Shown in pieces: positions 2,893 through 54,814 of a stretch of DNA of 64,000 nt (position 1 is its first letter; each line of letters begins with the position of its first letter). Source of the stretch: Clostridia bacterium (GTDB lineage Bacteria > Bacillota > Clostridia > CAKSNL01 > HGM11501). Under the pieces are notes generated by a model. The model did no database searches. It was not told where the DNA came from and worked only from the letters and a program-made list of their open reading frames with translations. A program made the position numbers and the translations under genes. The stretch spans positions 12,169 through 76,168 of the forward strand of contig JAZQAZ010000019.1 of assembly GCA_045545475.1 (NCBI GenBank), given 5' to 3'.

Positions 2893-5361
2893 ATGAAAAA
2901 AATATTTGCACTTATTTTAAGCATCGTACTTATGATATCCTCTTTATACATCTGTGTAAATGCAAAGGTTACGGAAGTTCCGGTTGAAAACTTAAAGGAA
3001 TCTGAAGCACTTCCTGCAAGAAGCACTTGGACTATTACGGCATCAAACTCATGGAAATGGGGGCCTGCCGAGAAAATGCTTGACGGCGATATAAAGACAA
3101 TGTGGCATTCATATTATAAGGAACAGGACGGAAAGGCAGTCGATAAAGCACCTGCACCTTATTATATTGATATCGAACTTCCCAAAAAAGCAGAAATAAC
3201 CGGCTTTGTATATGCACCCAGGCAGGATATTGATTCGGGCTATGTGTTTAACTGGGAAGCTTATTCCGTTTCAGATGACGGGAAAGAAGAATTGCTTGCA
3301 ACAGGTGAATTTGCCAGAAACAAAAATGCAAAGGTTGCATCATGGCAGGGCAAGGAAACCAAGAAAATCCGCATTGTGTTTACAAAGACTACAGGTGTAG
3401 GTACCTGTGCAGAGCTTTACCTTTTAGGCAAAGGGGAGGATGCATCGCTTTTCGCATCATCCGGCAATGCTACTGCTGATGAAAAAGAAAGCGTTGACGC
3501 TTCCCTTGAATCCAAGGTTCTCCCCGAAAGAAGCACCTGGACCATTACCTCATCAAGCTCATTGTCCTGGGCAGGACCTGAAAGAATGCTTGACGGAAAC
3601 GTGAAAACCTATTGGCATTCTTACTATAAGGAGCAGGACGGAAAGGCTGTTGATAAAGCACCCGCACCTTATTATATAGATATTGAACTTCCTGAAGAAA
3701 GCGTTGTAAAAGGCTTTACCTATGTGCCGAGAATTGATAATAATTCAGGTTATGTATTTAACTGGGAAGCATATGCTGTTTCAGATGACGGAACGGAAAC
3801 AAGACTTGGTGCAGGCACCTTCGCCAATGATGCAAACCCCAAAAGTGCAATCTGGAACGAAGTGAGCCTTAAAAAAATTCGCATAGTGTTTACTAAAACC
3901 ACAGGCGTTGGTACCTGTGCAGAGCTTTACTTAATCGGTAAAGGCGAAAGCGGAGTAAAGGCTCCTGCAACCGAAAAAAAGGAAGAGGTCAAAGATTCAA
4001 ATGTAAACGACAAAGGCTGGATTGTAACGGCATCATCTGAAAAGAACTGGGCCCCCGGCATAAGAGCATTTGACGGCAAAATGAATACCTACTGGCATAC
4101 AGATTACGAGGAGGAAGGCGGCAAAGTAATAAGCCACGATATGCCTCCTCACGATCTTAAGGTGACCTTCCCCGAAAAGAAGGTTATCAGCGGATTTACC
4201 ATTTATCCGAGAGAAGGGGCAACTTCTCAGGCGGGACTTGTAGAAAAGATTAACTTCTATGTATCCGATTCTGACGAAGGGGAATATTATCTTCTTTGCA
4301 CAGAGGAGTTTAATGCAACAACAACGGCAAAGGTTGTTGACTTTGCCTGCAGTATAGAAGTAAAAAGAATTTGGGTTGAAATAACAACAAGCTTTGGCGG
4401 CTATGCTGTTATTGCGGAAATGGAATTTTCAGAGCCGGGAGAAGATACGAAAATTGTTTCTTATGAGGATTTTGCTGCCACAAGAGATGAAAACCGTCTC
4501 TATAAGATTGATTCCTCGGGATTTACGGTAACGGATCCTGATAATACGCCTACATGGTCAGGAAACCCCGGAACACTTGTGGACGGAACAGAGAGAGGAT
4601 TCTGGCAGACAGAAAAGCTTGCACCGGGAACAGTGATATTTATCAATATGGATTTAGGCGAGGTTAAGGAATTTACACATATGTCAATTATTCCCAGACC
4701 TTCTGACGATTATCACGGCTATTGGGAAAAGTTTAATGTTTATGTGTCGGAGGACGGCGTTGACTATAAAGAGCTTTTATACGATTATTCCTTTGAAGAG
4801 GAAGAAAAGGATATATCCGAAAAATTCATTTTCTTTGAGGAAGGCGTAAAGGCGAGATATGTGGAGTTTGAAATAACGGAATATTTCAACGCCCGTGTAA
4901 GCTGTGCCGAAATAAGCTTCTGGCAGAACAAGGAAATGCACGATAAAACTTCCGATTCAGGTAAATATGTACTTAAAATAGGCTCTCCCGAAATTGAAAT
5001 CACAAAGGGAGGAAAGACCTATATCAAAACAATGGATGTTGCACCTTTCATAACTGCAAAAGGACAGACAATGATACCCTTGCGTGGACTTGTCGAAGAA
5101 ATGGGTATGGAGATAGAATGGATTGCTGAGACCCAGGAAATCATTCTTTCCAAAGGGATAAGAAAAATTAATCTTCAGATCAGAAACAAACTTGTAAAGG
5201 TGGAGGGTACGCCATACGGTGATGTGGTATACACTCTTTATTCTCCTCCGAAAATCAAGGATTCAAGAACCTTTGTGCCGGTAAGATTCTTATCCGAGCA
5301 GATGGGCTATACCGTAAATTGGGACGGCGAAAGCCAGACTGTAACAATTGAAAAAGAATAA
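2893..5361 (+). CDS. Cassette gene B1: secreted protein with 4 F5/8 type C (discoidin/CBM32-like) modules + stalk domain
   Basis: Signal peptide; four repeats of W..TAS..DG...T.WH/QS/T..PR; C-terminal APFI..TMIPLRGLVEEMG..RTFVPVRFLSEQMGYTVNWD. Confidence 0.8.
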   Translation: MKKIFALILSIVLMISSLYICVNAKVTEVPVENLKESEALPARSTWTITASNSWKWGPAEKMLDGDIKTMWHSYYKEQDGKAVDKAPAPYYIDIELPKKAEITGFVYAPRQDIDSGYVFNWEAYSVSDDGKEELLATGEFARNKNAKVASWQGKETKKIRIVFTKTTGVGTCAELYLLGKGEDASLFASSGNATADEKESVDASLESKVLPERSTWTITSSSSLSWAGPERMLDGNVKTYWHSYYKEQDGKAVDKAPAPYYIDIELPEESVVKGFTYVPRIDNNSGYVFNWEAYAVSDDGTETRLGAGTFANDANPKSAIWNEVSLKKIRIVFTKTTGVGTCAELYLIGKGESGVKAPATEKKEEVKDSNVNDKGWIVTASSEKNWAPGIRAFDGKMNTYWHTDYEEEGGKVISHDMPPHDLKVTFPEKKVISGFTIYPREGATSQAGLVEKINFYVSDSDEGEYYLLCTEEFNATTTAKVVDFACSIEVKRIWVEITTSFGGYAVIAEMEFSEPGEDTKIVSYEDFAATRDENRLYKIDSSGFTVTDPDNTPTWSGNPGTLVDGTERGFWQTEKLAPGTVIFINMDLGEVKEFTHMSIIPRPSDDYHGYWEKFNVYVSEDGVDYKELLYDYSFEEEEKDISEKFIFFEEGVKARYVEFEITEYFNARVSCAEISFWQNKEMHDKTSDSGKYVLKIGSPEIEITKGGKTYIKTMDVAPFITAKGQTMIPLRGLVEEMGMEIEWIAETQEIILSKGIRKINLQIRNKLVKVEGTPYGDVVYTLYSPPKIKDSRTFVPVRFLSEQMGYTVNWDGESQTVTIEKE

Positions 5362-5396: not shown

Positions 5397-6149
5397 CTAT
5401 CTGTGTTTGTAAAGCTTCGAAGGAGGAACACCGTATTCTTTTTTTACCACACGGCTGAAATAATTGGCGTCGGTAAAGCCTGACATAAGCGCGACTTCAC
5501 TTATAGAGTGGTTTCCCGACAACAATAATTGTTCTGCAAATTTAAGCCTCTCCGAGATTAAAAATTCCGTGGGCGAACAGCCTGTTTTTTCAGCAAACAG
5601 TCGCCTGAAATAGGTTCCGCTTATGCCGGAGGCGGCAATTACGCTGTCAATGGATAAATCCGGGTTTTTAAAATTTTCCTTGATGTATAAAAATGACTTT
5701 TCAAATAAATCTTCGCCTTTACTTTTATTAGATGAGAAAGACCTGTCCATAAGTGCTTTCATTATATCACAAAACAGAGAAAGGGAATTAATAGCATAGC
5801 CTGCTTCTTTTTTATCCCATACGGCAGAAATCTTTTTGAAAATTTCTTTTGTATCTCGGGCATTCGGGAAGTTTTCGGGCAAAGCTATTATGTCAGAATA
5901 AAAGTTTATGTATAAAATTTCGTTGTATGAATGGTATTTGGCAAAGTAAGGGGTATCTTTGGGCATAAAAAACACATCTCCGGCATTGCTGTCAAGGGAA
6001 AAACCGTCTCCCGTCATACTTCCGCTTCCTTTAAGGCGGTATACAAGAGCGTTATAGCCCCTTGGTGCAACATTTGCTTCGTGGGCATTCCAGCGAAGTG
6101 AGCCCGCATGTGTTATTTTTATACTCATGTTTTTGTTTAAGATTGACAT
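5397..6149 (-). CDS. AraC-family transcriptional regulator
   Basis: C-terminal ISGTYFRRLF..G.SPTEFL..RL..A..LL..SISEVALMSGFTDANYFSRVVKKEYGVPPS; ATG at 6149 after GGTGA is the likely start. Confidence 0.9.
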   Translation of the reverse strand: MSILNKNMSIKITHAGSLRWNAHEANVAPRGYNALVYRLKGSGSMTGDGFSLDSNAGDVFFMPKDTPYFAKYHSYNEILYINFYSDIIALPENFPNARDTKEIFKKISAVWDKKEAGYAINSLSLFCDIMKALMDRSFSSNKSKGEDLFEKSFLYIKENFKNPDLSIDSVIAASGISGTYFRRLFAEKTGCSPTEFLISERLKFAEQLLLSGNHSISEVALMSGFTDANYFSRVVKKEYGVPPSKLYKHR

Positions 6150-6280: not shown

Positions 6281-7603
6281 ATGAGTTTTGTTTTAGACGA
6301 AAAAATGTTATTTTCGTTCCCCGAAAAGGCAAATAATGAAGCTTTGATGGAAATCTTCGGGAATTTCACACACGGAAAGTTTAAGAATGTGAAGTTCTCA
6401 TCGGAAGAAAATGTTATTGTTATTGGCGAAGGTGAAGCTGCTGACATCGCTGACGCAGAAAATGTAATCAATGCTACGGATAAAGGCGTTTACATCAAGG
6501 GTACAAACTATACAAATTTAGTACACGGATTTTTCCTTTTCCTTGAAGGGCTTTCCTATGACAGAAAGAGCGATTCCTATTCCTTTAAGCAAGGCACTTT
6601 CAGAAGAAGCGGAGAAGTTTCCTTCAGAAGCATCCATTTTTGCATATTTCCTGAGACGGAGCTTAAATTTTTGAGAAAAAGCATCCGTACTGCGGCTCTT
6701 TCTAAATTCACTCACGTAGTGCTTGAATTCTGGGGGATGATTAAATTTGATTGCCTTAAAGAGCTTGCCTGGCCGATGGCTTATGAAAAAGATGAAATAC
6801 GTGCCATAGTTGCAGAGGCAAATGCCCTTGGGCTTGAAGTAATTCCTATGTTTAACCACCTTGCACACGCATCAGGATGTCGTGAAGCAAACGGTAAGCA
6901 CGTAGTACTCGATCAGAACCTTTCCCTTGACTATATGTTTAACTGCTACGGCTGGAGCTGGAACTTCAAAAATGACGAGGTATTGTCGCTTTTGAGAAAG
7001 GTGAGAGCAGAGCTTATTGATGTCTGCGGAGAAGGAAAATATTTCCACATTGGCTGTGATGAAGAGTACATCTGCGTTCACGACATTGAAAAAATGGACG
7101 AGGTTATTGATTATATGAACGGCCTTTCCGATGAACTTAAAAAAGTGGGAAGACGAGCTATAATGTGGTGCGACATACTTTGTCCCAATGTCGGTGAGTT
7201 TTATGAATATGCCCAGAAAAAACTTTCAAAGGACATTCTTATTGTATACTACGATTATACCAGATCGTTGGTTGATTCTTTTAAGAGAATAGATATGTTC
7301 GCTGAATCTGGATTCGACTTTATAACAGGTCCCTGGGAGGGAAGGGAAAATGTAAAAGCGGCATCGGACAAAGCGAAGGAATATAAGCTTCCGGGCGTTA
7401 TGATGACAACCTGGCATTCGCTTTTCAGAAACTTCGGCGAAATCGTTTATATGGGAGAAGAATCTTATGGGGGTTATCCCGATTTGCCCGTGCAAATAAG
7501 ACGTTTCCATCAGGCTGAAGTGGCAAGGCGTGCCTTTTTCTCTGATGATGATTATAAAATAGCGGGTTGGTCCGAAAAGATGACAGGCCCCGGTCTTATG
7601 TAA
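6281..7603 (+). CDS. Glycoside hydrolase family 20-like (beta-N-acetylhexosaminidase-like), cytoplasmic
   Basis: EVIPMFNHLAH and FHIGCDE catalytic motif; no signal peptide; RBS AGGAGTGA before ATG 6281. Confidence 0.8.
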   Translation: MSFVLDEKMLFSFPEKANNEALMEIFGNFTHGKFKNVKFSSEENVIVIGEGEAADIADAENVINATDKGVYIKGTNYTNLVHGFFLFLEGLSYDRKSDSYSFKQGTFRRSGEVSFRSIHFCIFPETELKFLRKSIRTAALSKFTHVVLEFWGMIKFDCLKELAWPMAYEKDEIRAIVAEANALGLEVIPMFNHLAHASGCREANGKHVVLDQNLSLDYMFNCYGWSWNFKNDEVLSLLRKVRAELIDVCGEGKYFHIGCDEEYICVHDIEKMDEVIDYMNGLSDELKKVGRRAIMWCDILCPNVGEFYEYAQKKLSKDILIVYYDYTRSLVDSFKRIDMFAESGFDFITGPWEGRENVKAASDKAKEYKLPGVMMTTWHSLFRNFGEIVYMGEESYGGYPDLPVQIRRFHQAEVARRAFFSDDDYKIAGWSEKMTGPGLM

Positions 7604-9612: not shown

Positions 9613-12351
9613 ATGAAAAAAGTTGTATCGCTGCTTCTGACATTAATTATGATTATGTCTTTGGCAGCAACAGCATTTGCTGAAGGCGATATTGTGCTTG
9701 AAGCAAAAAATGCAACGCTTAATTCCGGTGCTACTGTGGACACAAGCGGTGCATATAACATTGTAAGAGGAGATTATTTCGGCTTTAAAGGTGTTGACCT
9801 TACCGGGATAAATTCCATAGGATTTCAGGTCAAGAGTAAAATCACAGGCGGAAACAACGGTGAAACCTATGCAATAAAGATTGACCATCCCGACTCGGGT
9901 CAGACAATCGGCTACATAACCGTTGAAAAGGAGTATGATAATGCGGTTATTATGACCGGAGTTGACTCGGCATCCGGCACACACGACCTTTATTTCAAGG
10001 GTACCTACGGATTTCAGATTGCAAACGAAATTATCGTAGAAAAGGTAATTCTTTCAAAAGATGTGTATACCTACGATAATACTGCCGCTCAGGTTTCAGA
10101 TGACTACATAAAGGATTTTTATCAGGATACCTGGGTTGCGGTTGACGATTTGGGCCGTAAGGTTGCAGACTTTGAAGAAGTAGGTCCTGTGAAGGAAGGC
10201 AAGAGAGAGTTTGGTCTTATCTACTGGAACTGGTTCGGAAGAAGAAATTCTCCTGCTATTGTTATCGAAGAGATAATCAAAAACAATCCCGATGCAAAGG
10301 ACGATTACAACCATCCTGCGTGGATTGTAGGTGCTAACTGTTATTGGGGCGAGCCTCTTTTAGGTTTTTATGATTCCTATGATTACTGGGTTTACAGAAA
10401 GCACGGCGAAATGTTTGCGACTGCAGGAGTCGATGCCATTTTCTTTGATTATTCAAACCAAGGATTAAACTTTCCCGGTGCTGTCGATGCAATAGTAGAG
10501 GCGTTCCGTGATGCTAAAAAGGCAGGCGTTGACGTTCCCGGAATTACCGGTATGTTCTCTCTGGGTGATAATCCTGAATTAAACACCCGTGCACTTCAGG
10601 AAATTTATCTTCACTGCTTTGTGAAAGAGGATTATTCCGATGTTTGGTTCCATATGGACGGAAAGCCCATGCTCTATTCCGGCAAAAAAATGTCACCCAA
10701 CAAAAAAGATCCGTATGAAGTTGCACTTACAGAAGAAATTACTGAATTTTTCACTTTCCGCACAAATGGTTACAGAAACCGTTACGATGAGCCTGATTAC
10801 TGGATGTGGCTTGAAAACTATCCACAGGTTAAGAGAATGGTAAATAAAGAAACCGGAAGAGTCGGATTTATGGTTGTTGGTACCGGTATAAATCAGTCTA
10901 CCGTTAATGCGGGTACGACAGGCGTATTCTCCGATCCTTATGCAAAAGGAAGAGGCTATTCAGAAGCCTTTGGTGAAGATTATACTGCTGATGGTATGAG
11001 GAAGGCATATTTCTTCCGCGAACAGGGAGGATTGGCTCTTTCCACCGATCCCGAGTTTGTTTTAGTTGATGGTTGGAACGAATGGAATACCGCGAGATAT
11101 GCAAACTATCAGAATCACAGAGGAAATGTTTTCGTTGACCTTTACGATCCTGAAAACAGCCGTGACTTCGAGCCCAACAACGGCCCCTTAAAAGACGACT
11201 ATTATCTCCTTATGACAGACTTTATAAGAAAGTATAAGGGCGTTCGTCCCGCTCCCGTTGCAAGCGGCGCAAAGACAATTGATATAGCAGGGGATATGGC
11301 TCAGTGGAATGGCGTTGGTCCCGAATTCTTAAACTTCGACCAGAGCTATGAGCGTGATTCTTACGGTGCAATTGACCCTTCGACAAACGCAAAGATTCAC
11401 TATACAACAACTGTTTCAAATGCAATTCTTTCGTCCAAGGTATCTTTTGATACAGAAAACATCTACTTCCTTGCAACAACAAAGGAAGCAATTGATGAAA
11501 ATTCCAAGGGCTTTATGAACCTTTACATTAATATCGACCGCAACCGTGCAACAGGCTGGGAAGGCTATGACTTTGCCGTAAACGTTGAAGGTAAGGGTAT
11601 AATTTCCAAAGCAAACGGAAACACCTGGGCGTGGACTAATGCAGGAAATGTTGCAACAAAGGTAAACGGAAACAATTATATGGTTGTAATTCCGAGAAGC
11701 GTACTTTCCGAAACAGCAACTGTTGACTTTGAATTCAAGTGGACAGATTCTGTAGAATGTAATGGAGATATATTAAGATTCTATGTTGACGGCTCAACTG
11801 CTCCTTACGGAAGATTTAACTATCTCTACACCGAAATAGAGCAGACATCACTTTCCGCAAGCGAAAGAGCGGCACTTTCAGGTACTTCTATTCTTAAAGC
11901 CGGTGCAGAAAATATGATAGTTTCCGGTGCAAAGATGGATATTTATGAAAAGGATACAACGGTGCGTGCATTTGAAATGAACGGCACACTTTATGTTCCT
12001 TCTGATGTATTTGAAGAGATTATGGGCTTTGGTAAGGCAAAGGTTGAATACGATCCCAACTACAACGTATTCTTCACACATCACATCACTTTAACTGAGG
12101 ATGAACAGGCGATAAAAGAACATAACTGGACAGTATCTGCTCTTAATTCTCTTGAAGTAAGAGTCGACGGCTCCGTTAAGACTATGTCAGCTCCCGTAAT
12201 CGCAAAGGATAATATGGTATGGGCTCCTCTTTCATTAATAGCTGATTGCTACGGATGGAATGTAACAAACTTAGGCAACGGTGTATATACAGTAGGAGAA
12301 AATGCCCCTGATATGAATACTGTAAACGCTGTACTTTCACATCTTAATTAA
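9613..12351 (+). CDS. Cassette gene A2 (paralog of A1)
   Basis: Same architecture: signal peptide, FGFKGVDLTG, DTWVAVDDLGRKV, WGEPLLGFY, DGWNEW, SRDFEP, stalk. Confidence 0.7.
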   Translation: MKKVVSLLLTLIMIMSLAATAFAEGDIVLEAKNATLNSGATVDTSGAYNIVRGDYFGFKGVDLTGINSIGFQVKSKITGGNNGETYAIKIDHPDSGQTIGYITVEKEYDNAVIMTGVDSASGTHDLYFKGTYGFQIANEIIVEKVILSKDVYTYDNTAAQVSDDYIKDFYQDTWVAVDDLGRKVADFEEVGPVKEGKREFGLIYWNWFGRRNSPAIVIEEIIKNNPDAKDDYNHPAWIVGANCYWGEPLLGFYDSYDYWVYRKHGEMFATAGVDAIFFDYSNQGLNFPGAVDAIVEAFRDAKKAGVDVPGITGMFSLGDNPELNTRALQEIYLHCFVKEDYSDVWFHMDGKPMLYSGKKMSPNKKDPYEVALTEEITEFFTFRTNGYRNRYDEPDYWMWLENYPQVKRMVNKETGRVGFMVVGTGINQSTVNAGTTGVFSDPYAKGRGYSEAFGEDYTADGMRKAYFFREQGGLALSTDPEFVLVDGWNEWNTARYANYQNHRGNVFVDLYDPENSRDFEPNNGPLKDDYYLLMTDFIRKYKGVRPAPVASGAKTIDIAGDMAQWNGVGPEFLNFDQSYERDSYGAIDPSTNAKIHYTTTVSNAILSSKVSFDTENIYFLATTKEAIDENSKGFMNLYINIDRNRATGWEGYDFAVNVEGKGIISKANGNTWAWTNAGNVATKVNGNNYMVVIPRSVLSETATVDFEFKWTDSVECNGDILRFYVDGSTAPYGRFNYLYTEIEQTSLSASERAALSGTSILKAGAENMIVSGAKMDIYEKDTTVRAFEMNGTLYVPSDVFEEIMGFGKAKVEYDPNYNVFFTHHITLTEDEQAIKEHNWTVSALNSLEVRVDGSVKTMSAPVIAKDNMVWAPLSLIADCYGWNVTNLGNGVYTVGENAPDMNTVNAVLSHLN

Positions 12352-47542: not shown

Positions 47543-48481
47543 ATGAAAAAATTAGTGGTAGGAATAATAACTTTACTAGCCTTGCTTGCGATTTATACTG
47601 TTGGGATTTGTGCCGAACAAAAAACCGTGAATGTAGGAGCGTTAAAAGTAGTTGGATACGATTCTCATTCGTTGAACGAGGAAACAAATGCCAGAGGCGA
47701 AAAAATTCTGGTAAATAAAATATGCATGAATTACGGGGGAAGCATATCAACTCTTTATGACGGTGATATGTATGTCACTTGTCACTATAAGTGGGATTCG
47801 TCAAGACCCGAATACACAGCTTCTTACAATCATGGAGCAAAGCCTACAACAGAAGACTGTTCGGTATACACAAGTCTCTATACCTTAGGCATATCTTGCT
47901 CTAATGTGTCCAGAAAAGACGGAGTATTTGCTGCAGGTTATACCTGGACGTTCAAGGACAAAGGTTACACCCCTCATATCATCATTGTGGAATGTAACGG
48001 ACGGGAATATTATTATTCAATTAAGTTTAAATACGGAAGTATTTTGCTTGAAAATTACGCCTATCCGTCTAATTCGAAACTTATTGTTAACGGGAACGAA
48101 GTTTCGTGCGGAGCGTATAAGATTATTGGAAATAATTATTTTAAAATCCGAGATATTGCACAGATGCTGAAAGGAACCAATGCACAGTTTTCCGTGGAAT
48201 GGGATGATAATCTTAAGGCTATAAATCTTGTTTCGGGAGGAATTTACCAAAGTCTTGGTAATGAATTGGCGGCGGTGCCAATCAAAGATAAGAAAACCGC
48301 AAAGTTTCCTCCTCCCAGTCTTTACAAAGACGGTATAGCCGAAGTTGTCAGAAGTTATAATATAGATGGCAGTAATTATTTCAAATTAAGAGATATAGGA
48401 ATGATTTTTAATTTTTATATCGGCTGGGATGAAGTTACAAACTGCATTACTATAGACACAACGAAACCTTATACAGAATAA
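47543..48481 (+). CDS. Secreted hypothetical protein with C-terminal stalk-like cell-surface domain
   Basis: Signal peptide; duplicated AY.I.GNNYFK.RDI..WD motif. Confidence 0.6.
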   Translation: MKKLVVGIITLLALLAIYTVGICAEQKTVNVGALKVVGYDSHSLNEETNARGEKILVNKICMNYGGSISTLYDGDMYVTCHYKWDSSRPEYTASYNHGAKPTTEDCSVYTSLYTLGISCSNVSRKDGVFAAGYTWTFKDKGYTPHIIIVECNGREYYYSIKFKYGSILLENYAYPSNSKLIVNGNEVSCGAYKIIGNNYFKIRDIAQMLKGTNAQFSVEWDDNLKAINLVSGGIYQSLGNELAAVPIKDKKTAKFPPPSLYKDGIAEVVRSYNIDGSNYFKLRDIGMIFNFYIGWDEVTNCITIDTTKPYTE

Positions 48482-48515
48482 AAATGTATCCGTTCGAAAG
48501 AACGGATACATTTTT
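48480..48515. terminator. Bidirectional intrinsic terminator
   Basis: AAAAATGTATCCGTTC-GAAA-GAACGGATACATTTTT between convergent genes. Confidence 0.85.
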
Positions 48516-49326
48516 ATATTTTGATGCAAAACGGCTGTCTTTTTTTGTAGTAATAATATTCTGAGAAACCAATTGCTTTCAGTTTTTCTTTAGTTTCGCT
48601 GAAAGCTTTTCCGACATTTTGTGCTATATGAGCATCGCTGCCTAAGGTTATAAGTCTTCCGCCCATATTATAATACATTTCAACAACATTTAGCGGAGGC
48701 ATATATTCACTGTAAAATGAGTAAAGTCCGGAGGTGTTTATTTCAAGGGCGATATTTCTTTTTATGATTGCAAATAAGATTTTTTCAATTATATCCATAT
48801 GGTTGTTAACGTCAATTCCTTTACCGTATTTGCCATTAATGTATCTCAGCGGACATGTCAGATGAGCAAGGATGTCAATATCGGAGTTTTCAGCTGTATA
48901 TAAAACTTCGGACAAATATTTCCTGAAATAATTATTGAGAAAGTTCGAAGTAAAACCGGAAAAATCAATCAATGAATAAAAGGTGTTCACATCTTCCATT
49001 AAGGTGCAGTGTACCGACCCTATTACAACGTCAAGGTCGGGGAGGGCGAGGATGCTTTTCGTGTAATCTGAATCAAGGAATCCTTCTGCTAGTTCTACTC
49101 CTTTGAAAATGGTGAGTTTATCTCCGTATTTTGCTCTTGCTGCATCAACAGCTTTATGACTGCTTTTTATTCGCTGATACGCGTTGGTCCTTTTGGAACT
49201 TGGTATATCAACGTGATCGGTTATGCATATACCGGAAAGTCCTTTCCTTATAGCATAGGAACAAAGACCGTCAAGATCCTGCATGCAGTCATCCGAGTTA
49301 TCTGTATGGGTATGAGAATCGAACAT
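48514..49326 (-). CDS. PHP-family histidinol-phosphatase-like protein (HisJ/HisK family)
   Basis: DSHTHT, ITDH, GVE, GSVH, AHL, LEINTSG, TLGSDAH. Confidence 0.88.
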   Translation of the reverse strand: MFDSHTHTDNSDDCMQDLDGLCSYAIRKGLSGICITDHVDIPSSKRTNAYQRIKSSHKAVDAARAKYGDKLTIFKGVELAEGFLDSDYTKSILALPDLDVVIGSVHCTLMEDVNTFYSLIDFSGFTSNFLNNYFRKYLSEVLYTAENSDIDILAHLTCPLRYINGKYGKGIDVNNHMDIIEKILFAIIKRNIALEINTSGLYSFYSEYMPPLNVVEMYYNMGGRLITLGSDAHIAQNVGKAFSETKEKLKAIGFSEYYYYKKRQPFCIKI

Positions 49327-49354
49327 ATAAACGCCACCTTTCTAATGTTGATTT

Positions 49355-49383
49355 ATTTTATCACATTAAGGCTTTTTTATCAA
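49355..49383 (-). promoter_or_regulatory. sigma-A promoter of the PHP gene
   Basis: Minus strand TTGATA-17-TAAAAT with TG extension; RBS AAAGGTGG downstream. Confidence 0.65.
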
Positions 49384-49407
49384 GTTATATTTCGTCTTTA
49401 CACATTC

Positions 49408-49899
49408 ATTCCAATGATAATCGGAGAGATAAGGAGGTATTTAAGAGATTATAACACAATTAGAGTGAGTCGCTCTGTAAGGGATCTTGCATATAAAGTG
49501 ATTGCGGTCAGAGAAAAACTTTCCAACGAAAAACAAACTGAAGTCACTAACGAAGATATTGCAAAAGTCCTTGAGGTAGAAAAAAAGGATGTTGATATGG
49601 CTCTTGATGCAATCGCTGATCCGGTTTCGATTTTCGACCCGGTTTATCACGATGGAGGAGATGCAGTATATCTTATGGATCAGATATCCGATGAAAAGAA
49701 TACGGATGAAAACTGGACGGAATCCATAGCTCTTTCGGAAGCTATGAAAAAGCTTGGGGAAAGAGAAAAAAAGATATTGAAGCTTCGCTTTTTTGAAGGG
49801 AAAACGCAAATGGAAGTGGCTGAAGAAGTGGGAATAAGCCAAGCTCAGGTGTCGCGTCTCGAAAAGAGTGCGATTGATATTATGAGAAGAAATATTTGA
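49408..49899 (+). pseudogene. sigG: 3' part of forespore sigma factor SigG (split or 5'-truncated gene)
   Basis: PMIIGEIRRYLRD..IRVSRS.RDLAYK..ALDAI.DPVS..DGGD..MDQISDE..GKTQMEVAEE.GISQAQVSRLEK is SigG-specific; roughly 95 N-terminal residues absent; no RBS before ATG 49414. Confidence 0.85.
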
Positions 49900-49945: not shown

Positions 49946-49974
49946 TTGACAAATTATGGGGTTTGTGCTATAAT
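49946..49974 (+). promoter_or_regulatory. Consensus sigma-A promoter of lysA-scpAB
   Basis: TTGACA-17-TATAAT with TG extension. Confidence 0.8.
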
Positions 49975-50013: not shown

Positions 50014-51303
50014 ATGTTTGGCGATTATGAAGTAAGAAACGGACATTTATATATTTCAGGAGCTGATACAGTCAGTCTTGCCCGTAAATACGGCACACCG
50101 CTTTATGTGATGAGTGAAGATGTGGTGAGAGCATCTTGCCGAGAACTAAAAGGAGCACTTGATAAGTATTATGATTCTTGCGGGATGATTACCTATGCGT
50201 CGAAAGCAATGTGCATTAAAGAAATGTGCAGAATCGTTTCTTCGGAAGGTCTTGGTATAGATTGTGTATCCGGTGGAGAACTCTACACAGCCAAAGAAGC
50301 CGGAGTTGCCATGGAAAAAATCCACTATCACGGAAACAATAAAACTGATGAAGAAATAAAATTCGGCCTTTCAATGGGCGTTGGAAAGTTCATCGTAGAC
50401 AGCGAGGAAGAGCTTATAAAAATAAACCGCTTTGCAAAAGAAAAAGGAATGGTGCAGAAAATACTCATTCGTGTAACACCGGGAGTTGACGCACATACCC
50501 ACGATTTTATAAAGACAGGTCAGATTGATTCAAAATTCGGCTTCGCAATCGAAACGGGTGCTGCTGAAGAAATTTGTAAAAAGGCCCTGACTCTCGAAAA
50601 TGTTCATCTTAGCGGTTTTCATTGTCATATTGGCTCACAAATTTTTGAAAAAGAACCGTTTGTAGAAACTGCCGAAATAATGCTTGATTTTATAAACGAT
50701 ATGGAAAATAAATACGGAAAAGCGTTTACAAATCTTGTACTAGGCGGAGGATTTGGAATTAAATATACCGAAGAGGATAATCCCTTACCTTTTGATGAAA
50801 TATTGAAACCCGTTCTTTGTTATATAAAGGAGCGCAGAGTAAAAGAGGGCAAGGATCTTATAAGACTCGGTTTTGAACCAGGAAGAAGCATAGCAGGGCC
50901 TGCGGGAGTTACTCTTTATACAGTCGGCAGTGTGAAAGAAATTCCCAATATCCGTACTTATGTTTCTGTTGACGGAGGAATGGGGGATAATCCGAGATAT
51001 ATTTTATATCAGGCAAAATATGAATTTCTTATTGCAGAAAGAGCGGACCAGGCCAAAGAAAAAACAGTCTCCGTATGTGGCAAATGCTGTGAATCAGGAG
51101 ATATGCTTGGTGAAAACGTACCGCTCGGAGAGGTTTCGGAAGGCGATATATTAGCCGTTAAAGCTACAGGTGCTTATAATTATTCTATGGCCAGCAACTA
51201 CAACAGGATTCCACGTCCTCCGGTTGTATTTATAAAAAACGGCGAAGACAGACTTTGTGTAAAGAGAGAAACTTACGAAGATTTAATTAAACTTGATATA
51301 TAA
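50014..51303 (+). CDS. lysA: Diaminopimelate decarboxylase
   Basis: YGTPLYV, YASKA, SGGE, HGNNK, SKFG, HCHIGSQ, EPGRS, CESGD, GAYNYSMASNYN. Confidence 0.96.
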   Translation: MFGDYEVRNGHLYISGADTVSLARKYGTPLYVMSEDVVRASCRELKGALDKYYDSCGMITYASKAMCIKEMCRIVSSEGLGIDCVSGGELYTAKEAGVAMEKIHYHGNNKTDEEIKFGLSMGVGKFIVDSEEELIKINRFAKEKGMVQKILIRVTPGVDAHTHDFIKTGQIDSKFGFAIETGAAEEICKKALTLENVHLSGFHCHIGSQIFEKEPFVETAEIMLDFINDMENKYGKAFTNLVLGGGFGIKYTEEDNPLPFDEILKPVLCYIKERRVKEGKDLIRLGFEPGRSIAGPAGVTLYTVGSVKEIPNIRTYVSVDGGMGDNPRYILYQAKYEFLIAERADQAKEKTVSVCGKCCESGDMLGENVPLGEVSEGDILAVKATGAYNYSMASNYNRIPRPPVVFIKNGEDRLCVKRETYEDLIKLDI

Positions 51304-51324: not shown

Positions 51325-52047
51325 GTGTTAAAAACGGAGGAGGTAATTTTTAAAACTGAAGAATTTGAAGGTCCTCTCGATCTGCTTTTACACCTTATCA
51401 GCAAGAATAAATTAAGTATCGTTGATGTTTCCCTTGCAAAAATAACCGATCAGTATTTCTCTTATATAGAACAGTGGAAGAATGAAAATATAGAGTTCTC
51501 AAGTGAATTTTTGGTTGTGGCGTCGGAACTTCTCTATATTAAATCTAAATTCTTACTTCCACGTCACGAAGAGGAAGAGGCAAATCCGGAAGATGAAGAA
51601 CAAAACCTTCTTGCACGACTTAAAGAATATAAACTCTTTAAATATACTGCCACAAAAATCGGTGACAGACAATTTGAGTCAAAATATCTTTTCTTCCGTT
51701 TGGCAGAAGCTTTGAAATTCAAAGCTAAACCTATGAAAAAAATGCCTAAGGAAAAACTATTATCGGCACTTTATGGCTTGGCAGAAAGAAAGGCATCGTT
51801 GCTTCCACCCGGAAAAGAAACCCTTAAAGATGCTATAGTGAAAAAACCTGTAAGCATTTTTGCTAAAGTTAAAGATATTTTACGAAGCATTAAGAAAAAA
51901 ACAAAGCTTAAATATAAGGAACTCTTTAAGGGTACGAGAAGCGACAAAGTTGCTTCATTCCTTGCTCTTTTGGAGTTGATTAAATTAAGTCGTGTTAAAT
52001 TTGATGGCGAAGGTGACGATATTACAATCACACACGTAAAGAGGTGA
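51325..52047 (+). CDS. scpA: Segregation and condensation protein A
   Basis: FEGPLDLLLHLI..ITDQY..FLALLEL. Confidence 0.93.
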   Translation: MLKTEEVIFKTEEFEGPLDLLLHLISKNKLSIVDVSLAKITDQYFSYIEQWKNENIEFSSEFLVVASELLYIKSKFLLPRHEEEEANPEDEEQNLLARLKEYKLFKYTATKIGDRQFESKYLFFRLAEALKFKAKPMKKMPKEKLLSALYGLAERKASLLPPGKETLKDAIVKKPVSIFAKVKDILRSIKKKTKLKYKELFKGTRSDKVASFLALLELIKLSRVKFDGEGDDITITHVKR

Positions 52048-52052
52048 AGGCG

Positions 52053-52622
52053 ATGAACGAAAAAGAAAAACTTGCAGCTTTTGAGGCAATATTGTTTGCT
52101 TCGGGAGAGAGTGTCCCAAGAGAAGCTATAGCAGAATCCCTGGAAATAAGCGAAAGCGAAGTTGAAGAACTGTATATAAAGCTCGCAGAAAAATATAAAG
52201 ATGGGGGTATTTCTGTTATAAAGCTTGATACTGATTATCAGCTTACTACAAAGAAAGAATATTACGAGTATGTAAGAAAAGTAACAGAGCCAAAGCGTAA
52301 CACCCCACTTTCAAATGCTGCTTTAGAAGCTTTATCTATAATCGCCTATAAGCAACCTGTAACCAGAAGTCAGGTGGATTATATACGAGGAGTTGACAGT
52401 TCAAGCTCAATGAGCAGGCTTATAAACTGCGGGCTTATTGAAGCTATCGGCGTATCAGATGCTCCGGGTAGGCCTTCTCTTTACGCAACCACAAAAGAGT
52501 TTTTAAGAGTATTCGGACTCGAAAGTCTTGAAGATCTGCCGGACATCGGAATGCTGGAACGTGAAATTGAGCTGGAGGAAAGCGAACAGCTTACAATTGA
52601 CACAGAAGAAACGGAAGAATAA
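52053..52622 (+). CDS. scpB: Segregation and condensation protein B
   Basis: EAILFASG, LSNAALEALSIIAYKQPVTR..IRGV, GRPSLYATT..FL..FGL. Confidence 0.95.
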   Translation: MNEKEKLAAFEAILFASGESVPREAIAESLEISESEVEELYIKLAEKYKDGGISVIKLDTDYQLTTKKEYYEYVRKVTEPKRNTPLSNAALEALSIIAYKQPVTRSQVDYIRGVDSSSSMSRLINCGLIEAIGVSDAPGRPSLYATTKEFLRVFGLESLEDLPDIGMLEREIELEESEQLTIDTEETEE

Positions 52623-52676
52623 TATAAAGGTTGTGTTAGTCTGATTATCGGAATTATTATAGCAATTATACTGTCG

Positions 52677-53201
52677 GTGTGTGTAATTGCAACATATACA
52701 CCTATAAGGTTATGCTTTTCGTATAAGAATGAAAAATTCGAAATATCTTTGAATTTTTTGAAAATAAAGATTAAACTCCCTTTTAAGAAAAAGAAGCATT
52801 CGGAAAATAAAAAGAAAATCAAAAAGAAAAAATCTGAGAAAAAGGACGAATTCAGTGCCTTTCAAAACTTTTTGGCAATACTTCAGGCGTTCTATGATAC
52901 ATCAATTTCTATAAGAAAAACAATTATTGTTGAAAAACTTGATTTCGATGCACTGTTTGGAAGTACAGATGCTGCATTCACTGGCATGGCCGTAGGATTT
53001 GCATATGCTGAAATTTATAAACTTATTGGTTTTTTAAGTACAATTTTCACGGTAAAAAAGCCTAACTTTACAATTAAACCGGTGTTTAATGACGAATCGG
53101 TGTTTGATATTGAAGGAGAAGGCATAATCAAAACAAAAGCGGCACATATTATTTCTACGGCAATTAAATTTTATTTTAATTATAAAAAAGCTATAAAATG
53201 A
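52677..53201 (+). CDS. YtfI/DUF2953-like membrane protein (start may lie further upstream)
   Basis: FGSTDAAFTG..G motif, Lys-rich linker, position upstream of ytfJ. Confidence 0.65.
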   Translation: MCVIATYTPIRLCFSYKNEKFEISLNFLKIKIKLPFKKKKHSENKKKIKKKKSEKKDEFSAFQNFLAILQAFYDTSISIRKTIIVEKLDFDALFGSTDAAFTGMAVGFAYAEIYKLIGFLSTIFTVKKPNFTIKPVFNDESVFDIEGEGIIKTKAAHIISTAIKFYFNYKKAIK

Positions 53202-53215
53202 AAGGATTGATTATA

Positions 53216-53623
53216 ATGACACACCCCATTCAAGGTTTAATGGAAGCTTCAATGAAAAACATCAAGGAAATGATAGACGTTAATACAATAATCGGAGAGC
53301 CTGTTCAGACTCCTGACGGAACAACAATTATACCTGTTTCAAAGGTTGCTTTCGGATTTGGTGCCGGCGGCTCTGATATCCCTGTTAAAGGTGGCTCAGG
53401 GGCTGCAGAAACTCCGTTTGGAGGTGGTAGTGGTGCCGGTGTTTCTATTAAGCCGGTAGGTTTTTTGGTTGTTGGTACTGACCAAATCAAATTACTTCCT
53501 ATTGATACAGCTGCTTCAACTCCGGTGGACAAGCTTTTGGAATTTATACCCCAAATGATAGACAAGGTAAATAATATAGTAAAGGAAAAAAAGGATAAAA
53601 AAGAAAATACAACTGAACTTTGA
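53216..53623 (+). CDS. ytfJ: Sporulation/germination protein YtfJ (GerW family)
   Basis: HPIQGLM..M.NIKEMIDVNTIIGEP..IIPVSKVAFGFGAGGSD..FGGGSGAGVSI.PVGFLVV. Confidence 0.93.
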   Translation: MTHPIQGLMEASMKNIKEMIDVNTIIGEPVQTPDGTTIIPVSKVAFGFGAGGSDIPVKGGSGAAETPFGGGSGAGVSIKPVGFLVVGTDQIKLLPIDTAASTPVDKLLEFIPQMIDKVNNIVKEKKDKKENTTEL

Positions 53624-53631
53624 TTTTTGAT

Positions 53632-53659
53632 TAATAAACGATTGGCCTGTTCATATAAT
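53632..53659 (+). promoter_or_regulatory. Possible sigma-E-type promoter of dacB
   Basis: ATA..15 bp..CATATAAT resembles the sigma-E consensus; B. subtilis dacB is sigma-E controlled. Confidence 0.35.
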
Positions 53660-53680
53660 ATTTTAGGCAGGTGAATCGTA

Positions 53681-54814
53681 TTGAGGAAATCATTAGTATT
53701 GTTTTTAGTATTTTTGTGCACTCTTTTTCCGATAAAGACTAATTCTTCTTTGAATATTTCGGCAAAGTCTGCGGTATTGATAGACACTGAGACCGGAAGA
53801 ATAATTTATGAAAAAAATGCTGATGAAAGATTGGCGATGGCCAGTACTACAAAAATAATCACAGCAATTACTGCGATTAAATACGGAAACCTTTCCGATG
53901 TTGTGACAGTATCATTGAATGCGGCAACAACGGAAGGGTCTTCGGTTTGGCTTTCAGAAGGCGAAAAACTTAGCCTTTCGGATCTTTTGTATGCAATGAT
54001 GCTTGAATCAGGAAACGATGCTTCTGTTGCAGTCGCTGAACATGTCGGCGGAGATGTGGATAGCTTTGCAAAACTTATGAATATAACATGCAAGGAAGCG
54101 GGGGCTTTTTCTACAAATTGTATAACGCCAAGTGGACTTGATGACGATATGCACTATACTACTGCTAAAGATATGGCGAAAATAGCAAGATTTGCTATGA
54201 AAAACAAAACCTTCAGAGAAATTGTTTCTACATATCAAGCTACAATTCCGTGGGAAGGAAACAGCTGGGGAAGAACACTGGTTAATCATAACAAACTACT
54301 TTCTGTTTATGATGGTGCAAATGGGATTAAAACAGGTTATACAAAAAAGTCAGGGAGATGTCTGGTATCAAGTGCCACAAAAGATGGATGGAGCCTTATC
54401 GCCGTTACCCTAAATGCGTCAGATGACTGGAACGATCATACAAAGATGTTGGATTATGCTTTTGAAGGATTCAAAGAAACAGAATTATTGACAAAAGAAA
54501 ATTCTCCTTTGGGAGAGATAAATATCATCGGGTCTAAAAAACGGAAAGTTAAATTCGGAACTAATGAATCAGTAAGCGTAAGAAAAATCCCCGGAAGTTT
54601 CGATTACAAGCTTAAATATAATGTTGCTGAAAAAATTTACGCACCAATAAAATACGGTGAAAAAGTCGGTAGTGCGGACATTTTGTTCGGAAGCGATTAT
54701 TATAAAACAATACCGCTTTACGCCCTTGAGGAAGCAAATAAAGACGACAAAAAATACATTTTTAAGGAAAATTATAAAATATTGCTTAAAACATTACTTT
54801 ATTTAGTGAGGTAA
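53681..54814 (+). CDS. dacB: D-alanyl-D-alanine carboxypeptidase (DacB-like)
   Basis: MASTTK (SxxK), SGN, KTG; adjacent to ytfJ and rluB. Confidence 0.8.
   Translation: MRKSLVLFLVFLCTLFPIKTNSSLNISAKSAVLIDTETGRIIYEKNADERLAMASTTKIITAITAIKYGNLSDVVTVSLNAATTEGSSVWLSEGEKLSLSDLLYAMMLESGNDASVAVAEHVGGDVDSFAKLMNITCKEAGAFSTNCITPSGLDDDMHYTTAKDMAKIARFAMKNKTFREIVSTYQATIPWEGNSWGRTLVNHNKLLSVYDGANGIKTGYTKKSGRCLVSSATKDGWSLIAVTLNASDDWNDHTKMLDYAFEGFKETELLTKENSPLGEINIIGSKKRKVKFGTNESVSVRKIPGSFDYKLKYNVAEKIYAPIKYGEKVGSADILFGSDYYKTIPLYALEEANKDDKKYIFKENYKILLKTLLYLVR

Follow-up and report, generated by a model that had tools for sequence, protein, structure and literature searches.

The gene sigG, which codes for the late forespore sigma factor SigG, is present as two separate pieces in the genome of a gut bacterium of the Clostridia. 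We analyzed a stretch of 64,000 nucleotides from this genome, referred to below as the window (assembly GCA_045545475.1, contig JAZQAZ010000019.1, forward-strand positions 12,169 to 76,168; coordinates given without a contig are those of the window). At 49411-49899 the window contains the intact 3' two-thirds of sigG, and the 5' third is absent there. It is likely that the region 49390-49899 represents the attR junction of a large serine recombinase (LSR) system together with the 3' part of a sigG gene that is held split in the vegetative genome and rebuilt by programmed LSR recombination. The heritable spore genome would then probably have to be rearranged to make spores.

The open reading frame (ORF) that covers the 3' piece runs from 49156 to 49899 on the + strand, and its match to SigG starts only at residue 76. 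The last 172 residues cover positions 84-253/254 of the SigG model TIGR02850 (E 1e-77, 261 bits) and are free of stops up to the usual C-terminus, so the sharp start of homology at the break and the open reading to the normal end that an initial annotation of this DNA had described were both recovered. SigG was the best-scoring sigma model (261-262 bits with TIGR02850, with NF006071 in agreement), ahead of SigF (180 bits), SigE and SigK. Pfam matched Sigma70_r3 and Sigma70_r4 and did not match region 2; the piece codes for regions 3 and 4 and, before them, the last part of sigma region 2.4. The part of the frame upstream of the SigG match is accidental and overlaps a divergent hisJ-family gene (48514-49326) on the opposite strand. 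No Shine-Dalgarno sequence was found upstream of the ATG at 49414, as the initial annotation had stated, and no + strand promoter-like site was found upstream of the piece. The DNA just upstream instead carries a promoter-like site of the divergent gene (TTGATA-17-TAAAAT, 49383-49355 on the - strand, facing the hisJ-family gene), again in line with that annotation.

The missing 5' half had been predicted to end at the same CC core and to lie probably after spoIIGA-sigE, and it was found there, directly after these genes, when the whole assembly (G000; 2.74 Mb, 50 contigs, 95% complete) was searched with the SigG model. The two SigG pieces cover TIGR02850 positions 1-97 and 84-253 and are located on different contigs. 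No full-length sigG above the curated cut-off of 457 bits is present in this 95% complete assembly, and neither piece qualifies as full-length SigG; only the joined gene would do so. A sigma match on contig C30 (199.9 bits) was rejected as an intact sigG, being a sigF-like member of a spoIIA-type operon. The 5' piece is a 99-codon ORF with a start codon and ribosome-binding site (RBS), ending in ...FSTYAVPMNV and a stop just beyond the break, and it is preceded by a SpoIIGA-like ORF and sigE (SigE 366 bits, cut-off 339). The gap between the sigE stop and the sigG start is only 11 nt (G000:C34:95435-95446; 5436-5446 of locus L011), and therefore any sigG promoter must be located within the sigE gene, unless the 5' piece is transcribed by read-through from spoIIG.

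Comparison of the two junctions revealed the arrangement expected of attL and attR sites of an LSR. The 5' junction reads GCAGTG-CC-GATGAATGTATAAAGGCATGAAAAA and the 3' junction in the window reads TTTCGTCTTTACACATTCATT-CC-AATGATAATCGG. In both, the break falls within the same proline codon, at its CC, and the pieces joined at this CC read ...STYAVP-MIIGE... in frame. The likeness to att sites lies in the mutually inverted arms at the two breaks: the non-sigG arms, about 22 nt each, are inverted repeats of each other. The palindrome TCATT-CC-AATGA is located at 49406-49417, where the initial annotation had placed it. By itself this 5+5 palindrome is not beyond chance, and it is the comparison of sequences that indicates a real recombination site, because 49390-49410 is kept in 11 genomes despite saturated synonymous sites and is an inverted repeat of the arm of the 5' half. 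Both junctions are conserved in 11 genomes, and the flanks past ~22 nt of arm are unalignable between subclades. The same site architecture with lineage-specific arms was found in five other genomes (G042, G064, G055, G080 and G114). The arms are inverted repeats within each genome, with 11-17 of 20 positions matching within a lineage and a mean of 10.8 across lineages. In total, 14 genomes have mutually inverted arms around the CC, as in LSR att sites, with the cleavage position predicted. LSR att sites are about 40-50 bp long, with imperfectly inverted arms flanking a non-palindromic central dinucleotide, and attL and attR each combine parts of attB and attP. A third arm-like site (C9:22981) lies inside an open reading frame and was taken as chance.

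The split is a conserved feature. Among the 12 genomes of the genus, not one carries an intact sigG: in nine of them both pieces were detected, in every case on separate contigs, two yielded the 5' piece alone and one the 3' piece alone. A genome of the sister genus (G013) is also split, with the 3' piece present. Full-length sigG occurs in a member of the same family (G012) and in 23 of the 27 relatives searched outside the family. All split relatives break at the same codon and not at random positions, and the 3' piece shares 73-98% amino-acid identity with the same piece in 10 relatives. The dN/dS ratio had a median of 0.062 and a maximum of 0.153 for the 5' piece (38 of 55 pairs usable) and a median of 0.035 for the 3' piece (11 of 45 pairs usable, dS being saturated or not computable in the rest), and the 21 sequences of the two pieces contain no stops or frameshifts. 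These ratios, far below 1, suggest strong purifying selection on both pieces; the relaxed selection that would mark a decaying fragment was not seen. Other sporulation genes (sigE, a sigF-like gene, sigK and ytfJ) are intact, and the earlier argument that sporulation genes are not decayed in general, based on ytfJ and the D-Ala-D-Ala carboxypeptidase gene, stands.

Misassembly at about 49,410 was rejected, as the junction is shared by 11 other assemblies and contigs from other metagenomes span it. In the Logan assemblies of runs X1, X2, X3 and X4, position 49410 is crossed by contigs, all in the split form; these runs are listed as four studies, although X2 and X3 have the same size and could represent a single data set. 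No loose contig end was found at the junction among those listed, although contigs cannot reveal a rare joined form.

As the initial annotation had noted, the window contains neither a 5' half nor a recombinase; the former is on contig C34 and the latter on contig C18. One of the nine resolvase-domain genes of G000 encodes an LSR of 449 amino acids with PF00239 at residues 4-152, PF07508 at 176-252 and PF13408 at 263-325. Residues R9, V10, S11 and T12 are invariant in 34 sequences, and residues 139-449 align to the C-terminal domain of the A118 integrase. Its predicted catalytic, DBD1 and DBD2 domains and C-terminal coiled-coil region place the protein in the large serine recombinase class, and among solved structures the TP901-1 and A118 integrases are closest to it. 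Orthologs with 72-91% identity occur in 10 of the 11 other genomes of the genus and in G013. Across the 41 relatives sampled, an ortholog was present in 12 of 13 split genomes and in none of the 28 others, in a comparison between kin that are not independent and with split genomes from only two genera. In G013 the gene directly precedes attR, and in G007 and G009 the distance to attR is 16 kb, again with the gene upstream. The prediction of a serine recombinase near the split was thus borne out in part: a conserved LSR co-occurs with the split, but in G000 it is on another contig. A role of this LSR as skin recombinase was rejected, since sigK is intact. Another LSR at the end of contig C34, 8.3 kb past attL, was rejected as partner enzyme: it shares 26.5% identity with the conserved LSR and, as read from the sequence, stands beside a truncated recombinase ORF. 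It belongs to a second mobile-element end at the contig end, 7 kb beyond attL (G000:C34:102980-105635; L011 12983-15635), that holds the truncated recombinase-domain ORF, a 205-aa ORF and this LSR of 517 aa.

Directly upstream of the conserved LSR gene is a gene for a protein of 40 amino acids, the ORF of which ends where the LSR gene starts. The family of this small ORF (40-55 aa, MKIxRYxNGKK...V.RR) has no Pfam family, abuts the LSR start in at least 35 of 80 loci and is conserved together with the LSR at 72-91% identity; the set used here comprised 34 sequences. Prediction of a complex between the small protein and the LSR gave a score of 0.65 against 0.00 for the best control. Of the pairs used for calibration, 58 of 80 solved complexes attained this mark, as did 2 of 110 mismatched pairs; the calibration holds only roughly for our own alignments. 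The runs agreed in at least 88% of the contacts, with a partner pLDDT of at least 76. The predicted interface on the LSR consists of residues 316-335, 410-432 and 441-449: the first nine residues of the small protein would pair with the last LSR strand (441-447), and its helix would lie on 316-335 and 410-432. This is the same DBD2/coiled-coil junction to which verified recombination directionality factors (RDFs) are predicted to bind, as described in PMC12286644. The model supports binding of the small protein to the LSR, short of demonstrating it, and the small protein is a candidate RDF.

The promoter region of this operon also carries a conserved motif. A box of the form G[GT]nnAnAHT, mostly ~26-35 nt 5' of the ATG of the small ORF, was present at 33 of the 34 distinct loci (compared with 8.3 in shuffles, sd 2.6, max 16), and a two-block SigF consensus in 14 of 34 (shuffles 2.6, sd 1.4). 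The B. subtilis SigF consensus is GYATA followed by GGnnAnAHTR (quoted in bioRxiv 10.1101/2023.12.01.569620). Neither the mother-cell-type CATAnnnT (4 of 34 loci; 5.1 in shuffles) nor a sigma-A-type pattern (3 of 34; 6.8 in shuffles) was enriched. The promoter box of the LSR operon looks like the forespore type. A strict two-block scan for SigF-type sites in the whole of G000 found 10 matches, compared with 6-18 for shuffled sequences, and the LSR operon was not among them.

The layout of the genome around the halves bears on the type of rearrangement. The dnaA gene (G000:C34:18553-19854) is located at the skew sign change, which places attL 76 kb from the origin. In G000 the orientation of all four flanks agrees with the direction of replication. 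This would be expected if the halves were direct and shared a replichore, and also if they were inverted and lay on opposite replichores; the only arrangement that GC skew rules out is an inversion confined to a single replichore. The flanks between the halves sum to at least 72 kb in G000, 148 kb in G011 and 315 kb in G007, and the only ileS gene of the G000 assembly lies 3.7 kb beyond attL. Because the intervening DNA in the genus is chromosomal and includes this single-copy gene, an inversion spanning the origin or terminus is probable and excision of a large circle less likely, and it is in this sense that we infer the orientation of the halves in G000. The earlier preference for an inversion or an excision with re-integration over simple loss agrees with the position of ileS past the 5' break and with the inverted halves of G042 described below. 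With ileS close to attL and the LSR on another contig, G000 does not contain a discrete, dispensable element that carries its recombinase; such elements were found in G064, G055, G075, G080 and prophage contigs. In G007 and G009 a spoIIA-type operon directly follows the 5' piece (L048 and L049, ~2990-4760), giving sigE, the sigG 5' piece and a sigF-like gene in a row. This operon is collinear with the spoIIA region on C30 of G000, where it is located elsewhere, with an ORF before it and without an att-like site.

To see how far the split extends, we used an LSR alignment of 331 relatives among species-representative genomes, of which the best 80 (56-91% identical) were surveyed. These belong to the Oscillospiraceae, Lachnospiraceae, Defluviitaleaceae, Monoglobaceae and other families, include many gut commensals and contain one cultured isolate with a complete genome. 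Both pieces of sigG were found in 56 of the 80 LSR-bearing species, one piece in 16, a full-length gene in five and neither piece in three, so that 72 of 80 carry a split sigG. Two architectures were observed. In the first, the halves have the same orientation and the LSR lies inside the intervening DNA, which measures 2.5 kb in G064, 14.7 kb in G055 and G075, and 17 kb in G080. In the second, the halves are inverted: they are ~37 kb apart in G114 and 49.6 kb apart in G042, the complete Lachnospiraceae genome of a Hominifimenecus isolate (5' piece at 1,953,942-1,954,229 on the - strand, 3' piece at 2,003,517-2,004,014 on the + strand). The 49.6-kb segment of G042 holds ftsZ and, by eye, cell-wall genes, and its skew and gene strand are the same as those of the flanks, which argues that the split state is the long-term one. 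The element of G064 is the smallest (2.53 kb; locus L102, 1848-4385) and consists of a 185-aa ORF with a weak HNH_repeat match, tRNA-Thr(GGT), tRNA-Trp(CCA), a small ORF and the LSR; for an element of this size, tRNA genes are an unusual cargo.

One genome shows the reciprocal state. A scan for arm-CC-arm sequences identified in G041, a metagenome-assembled genome (MAG) of the Bacillota, a perfect 32-nt intergenic palindrome, CTTTGCACATTCATT-CC-GATGAATGTGCAAAG. The same genome has an intact sigG (...GCGGTG-CC-GATGATAAT...) and an LSR ortholog with 59% identity. By its sequence, G041 thus combines the intact gene with an intact palindromic attP centred on CC (P-CC-P'). A general attP pattern gave no match in G012, which is no evidence of absence.

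Related LSRs on viral contigs bear on the source of the system. IMG/VR contains 570 relatives of the LSR. Five contigs of one phage group end in the order LSR, arm, CC and sigG 3' piece (L207, L225, L228, L235 and L240), and 14 sibling contigs of the same group (including L205 and L209; ~7358-7420) read LSR, arm, CC and arm, which is a free attP; one of these siblings has small and large terminase genes 4 kb further on. The contigs of this group are ~47-56 kb long, and their integrase is only 38% identical to the LSR of the window's genome, yet it uses the same target codon. Other viral contigs carry a palindromic attP (L178, L180 and L181) or abut the 5' piece, and further predicted prophages have related LSRs at ends that abut sigG halves (L176, L177 and L182). 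No homologues of the small ORF were found in 80 viral loci (tblastn, two queries), although such short proteins are hard to detect. From these contigs, sigG is an attachment site for temperate phages of Clostridia, and the system in the window looks like a domesticated, phage-free descendant of prophages or elements that integrate in sigG.

The proposal of the initial annotation that sigG is reassembled by a programmed long-range rearrangement is supported by the 5' half ending at the same CC, the conserved break, the low dN/dS and the co-occurring LSR; the rejoining itself we infer. In the mechanism that we envisage, dimers of the LSR would occupy attL and attR, cleave the DNA at the central CC and swap strands, giving in-frame sigG and a palindromic attP-like site. 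The small protein would be the RDF that permits the attL x attR reaction. Because the operon has a forespore-type promoter, the reaction would take place in the forespore once sigma-F is active, and it would license sigma-G synthesis. At or after germination, the LSR alone would re-split the gene by attB x attP recombination, which would be needed because the forespore genome is inherited. Sigma-G synthesis would have to wait until sigma-F has been active and the forespore has received both sites by DNA pumping, and therefore the split would serve as a DNA-level timer or lock on the step from sigma-F to sigma-G. Taken together, this describes a reversible germ-line rearrangement in which a sigma-F-driven LSR and RDF assemble sigG in the forespore, either by inversion, which in the genus may involve hundreds of kb surrounding the origin or terminus, or in other lineages by excision. 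The spore would carry the joined genome, the LSR alone would flip it back at germination, and the system would descend from spore-riding temperate phages that used sigG as attB. We put forward this complete scheme tentatively.

Several observations weigh against it. A joined sigG or an attP form of the genus was not seen, the Logan contigs of the four runs, which are assembled contigs only, showing just the split form. Scans of genome and metagenome collections for the attP pattern gave G041 and two chance matches, one in an Anaerolineales MAG among the genome contigs and one in a metagenome contig, inside an unrelated 1034-aa ORF. Four genomes (G049, G066, G089 and G099) carry the LSR with an intact sigG, and the general attP pattern was not found in the first three, which again is no evidence of absence. 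Contig-end overlaps (k=141) do not link C34 and C19, and C19 is linked only to C8. Subclades of the genus have different flanks beside the arms, so that extra rearrangements are needed. As to control, a loose sigE-like pattern (ATA-N16-18-CATA) also exceeded shuffles upstream of the operon (6 of 34 loci; 1.2 in shuffles, max 6). The clade of the window (G000, G002 and G003) has a perfect -10 box and a poor -35, and fails the two-block SigF match. SigF and SigG promoters are moreover alike, as stated in PMC3789822. The complex score of the candidate RDF was obtained with author-made alignments, and the small ORF and LSR look co-transcribed, which leaves LSR action without RDF in the reverse step unexplained. 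G066 also has, besides its full-length sigG, a sigma fragment at a contig start (G066:C367:3-482; positions 93-252, 143 bits), which may be a sigF piece or a second sigG state in the sampled population.

Instead of being programmed, the rearrangement could be a form of phase variation, with the LSR flipping or excising DNA in growing cells, either stochastically or on signals, so that mixtures of sigG-OFF and sigG-ON cells hedge sporulation and the state is inherited through the spore. Both states do occur as the majority form in assemblies, split in 72 and intact in five of the 80 LSR-bearing species, G041 combines intact sigG, attP and LSR, and classical invertible switches are likewise built from inverted-repeat sites and a serine recombinase. 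We consider this explanation unlikely. LSRs with an RDF are directional and regulated, and the enzyme found here has the full LSR architecture and not the ~190-aa invertase form. The operon is preceded by a conserved forespore-type -10 box, with sigma-A-type sites at 3 of 34 loci against 6.8 in shuffles. The contigs are unbroken across the junctions in G000 and in other runs, with no large minority form evident, and the 2.5-17 kb direct-repeat elements would be lost upon excision in dividing cells.

It is still less probable that the sites serve only the cycle of a mobile element, with the disruption of sigG as its cost or aim, carriers that are blocked in sporulation until the element exits, and, in the genus, only dead att scars of a scrambled element. 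The eight predicted prophage contigs with LSRs abutting sigG halves and the sibling contigs with a free attP beside the LSR (14 in one group, L178, L180 and L181; one with terminase genes) agree with such a cycle, and phage-encoded sigF/sigG-like sigma factors cut spore production in B. subtilis according to a review (PMC13492144). However, the sites in the genus have no flanking phage genes, the flanks being ileS, galT, hisJ and the spoIIA operon. The LSR, the small protein, the arms and both halves are kept under selection in 12 species, as scars would not be, and the skew in G042 indicates that the split is a long-term state. A fixed block of sporulation would also free sigG and other sporulation genes from selection.

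Least probable is that the split in the genus is never repaired, leaving either relics of an old prophage integration or inversion with SigG dispensable, or a two-piece sigma factor like the two-subunit SigO-RsoA of B. subtilis: no joined form was seen and the 5' piece is a complete ORF with start and RBS that ends in NV and a stop just past the break, but relics would decay, whereas dN/dS is at most about 0.15 for both halves with no stops or frameshifts in 21 sequences, the 3' piece lacks an RBS and a + strand promoter-like site, the non-coding arms are kept and change in step with each other as inverted repeats (11-17 of 20 positions within a lineage, mean 10.8 across lineages), the LSR and small protein are 72-91% identical and strictly co-occur with the split, and sigE, the sigF-like gene, sigK and ytfJ are intact.

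The features discussed here are compiled in Table 1, together with the neighbouring genes in the window.

Table 1. Positions of the sigG pieces, recombination sites, recombinase operon and neighbouring genes. Positions without contig refer to the window.
Feature	Position	Strand	Remarks
sigG 3' part	49411..49899	+	Pro-codon CC 49411-49412, ATG 49414 (MIIGEIRRYLRD...), stop 49897-49899
attR-like site	49390..49433	+	non-sigG arm P 49390-49410 (TTTCGTCTTTACACATTCATT), CC 49411-49412, sigG-side arm B' 49413 to ~49433
sigG 5' part	G000:C34:95455-95745		TIGR02850 positions 1-97, E 9.5e-46
sigG 5' part plus attL	G000:C34:95446-95770		after spoIIGA-sigE, 76 kb from dnaA
LSR, 449 aa	G000:C18:57640-58989		Resolvase, Recombinase and Zn_ribbon_recom domains
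Gene for 40-aa protein	G000:C18:57521-57640		just upstream of LSR; ORF ends where LSR gene starts
Sigma-70-type promoter-like site of hisJ-family gene	49355..49383	-	TTGATA-17-TAAAAT with TG, 10/12 matches; consensus match only
hisJ-family histidinol-phosphatase (PHP) gene	48514..49326	-	TIGR01856, 120.8 bits, cut-off 90.2
lysA (diaminopimelate decarboxylase)	50014..51303	+	TIGR01048, 461 bits, cut-off 298; first gene of sigG-side downstream flank
scpA, scpB, ytfI-like ORF, ytfJ (GerW family), D-Ala-D-Ala carboxypeptidase	51325..54814	+	all intact; NCBIfam matches

The non-sigG flank (Y flank) begins with the hisJ-family gene and is shared by G002 and G003; the promoter-like site of this gene is 7 nt from the attR arm. 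In G007 the flank includes a hisJ-like gene and a homologue of the window's 38.2-41.7 kb region. An ORF of 312 amino acids between galT and hisJ (47543-48481) has a hydrophobic N-terminus and matched no Pfam family at E 0.01. On the sigG side, lysA has its own promoter at 49946-49974, a perfect sigma-70-type TTGACA-17-TATAAT with TG, 47 nt past the sigG stop, and is therefore independent of transcription through the sigG fragment. Further downstream, ScpB (130.6 bits; cut-off 89.2) and spore_ytfJ (164.7; cut-off 116.3) were recognized by their NCBIfam models, and ScpA and the D-Ala-D-Ala carboxypeptidase scored under their equivalog cut-offs. No clear motif was seen by eye upstream of ytfI-ytfJ.

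The split is not a curiosity of one MAG, as it occurs in dozens of Clostridia from several families. No description of a split, interrupted or phage-targeted sigG was found in the literature searched, in which subscription journals were not covered, and a survey of sporulation genes lists skin elements and no split sigG (bioRxiv 10.1101/2022.02.25.481979). If sigG is indeed rejoined by programmed recombination, the switch from sigma-F to sigma-G would have an extra control step at the level of DNA. It would also explain pseudogene-like sigG genes in the annotations of many Clostridia, which could mislead predictions of spore formation from genomes. A further gain would be a naturally occurring LSR whose candidate RDF is 40 aa long and whose defined att sites may support recombination in both directions, and the idea that temperate phages enter spores by forespore excision would become testable.

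Several known systems share parts of this arrangement. The serine invertases Hin, Gin and Mpi also combine inverted sites with a serine recombinase in an on/off inversion, to which the inverted halves of G042 and G114 may be compared. These enzymes are ~190 aa long and act on short segments, whereas the LSR found here has 449 aa with DBD1, DBD2 and a coiled coil, and the segments range from 37 kb to possibly hundreds of kb. Its match to the Mpi model is weak (27.8 bits; cut-off 272), and it is not a small invertase. The fdxN element of Anabaena, with XisF, is similar in that a gene is restored by LSR excision as part of a developmental program. Our LSR has one of its best NCBIfam matches to the XisF model (141.5 bits), far below the equivalog cut-off of 375. 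Heterocysts are terminal cells in which no reversal is needed.

Prophage phi10403S of Listeria monocytogenes excises reversibly with an A118-type serine integrase, the family that is nearest to our LSR among solved structures. Its insertion in comK is a close parallel, since a prophage in a regulatory gene acts there as a switch in a surviving cell line, without lysis, as reported in PMC7397523. That switch was shown experimentally and involves neither sporulation nor inversion, whereas the one described here is a proposal. The gin element in gerE of B. cereus ATCC 10987, which is not a prophage, resembles the 2.53-kb element of G064 in carrying little beyond recombination genes (PMC5595907). 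The target gene and presumably the compartment differ, and the genus of the window has no such compact element.

SPbeta in spsM, with SprA and SprB, is alike in having an LSR with a small protein encoded upstream of it, an RDF in SPbeta and a candidate RDF here. The sporulation-specific promoter of the SPbeta RDF sets the direction of recombination, and the prophage uses a sporulation gene as attB (PMC4191935; PMC5499854). SprA is a distant relative (PDB phmmer E 3e-9), the TP901-1 and A118 integrases being closer to our LSR, and SPbeta excision is specific to the mother cell, whereas the promoter box found here is of the forespore type. The skin element of B. subtilis and C. difficile offers a functional parallel: a sporulation sigma gene, sigK, is split in frame and rejoined through site-specific recombination by the LSR SpoIVCA, and in C. 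difficile an RDF gives control by cell type (PMC5025042; PMC4191935). In the organisms studied here sigK is intact and the target is sigG, the intervening DNA in the genus is chromosomal with an unlinked recombinase gene, and in carriers with inverted halves the event would be an inversion. As with skin, SPbeta and gin, a sporulation gene is split in frame with both parts intact, and the carrier encodes an LSR and, as a candidate only, an RDF. The known sporulation rearrangements (sigK, spsM, gerE and others) are, as described in PMC4191935, confined to the terminally differentiated mother cell, and sigG is forespore-specific in B. subtilis and C. difficile (PMC3789822). A split sigG breaks this mother-cell-only rule, since SigG acts in the forespore, whose genome is that of the next generation; therefore the rejoining would have to be undone, or the excised element kept and reinserted.

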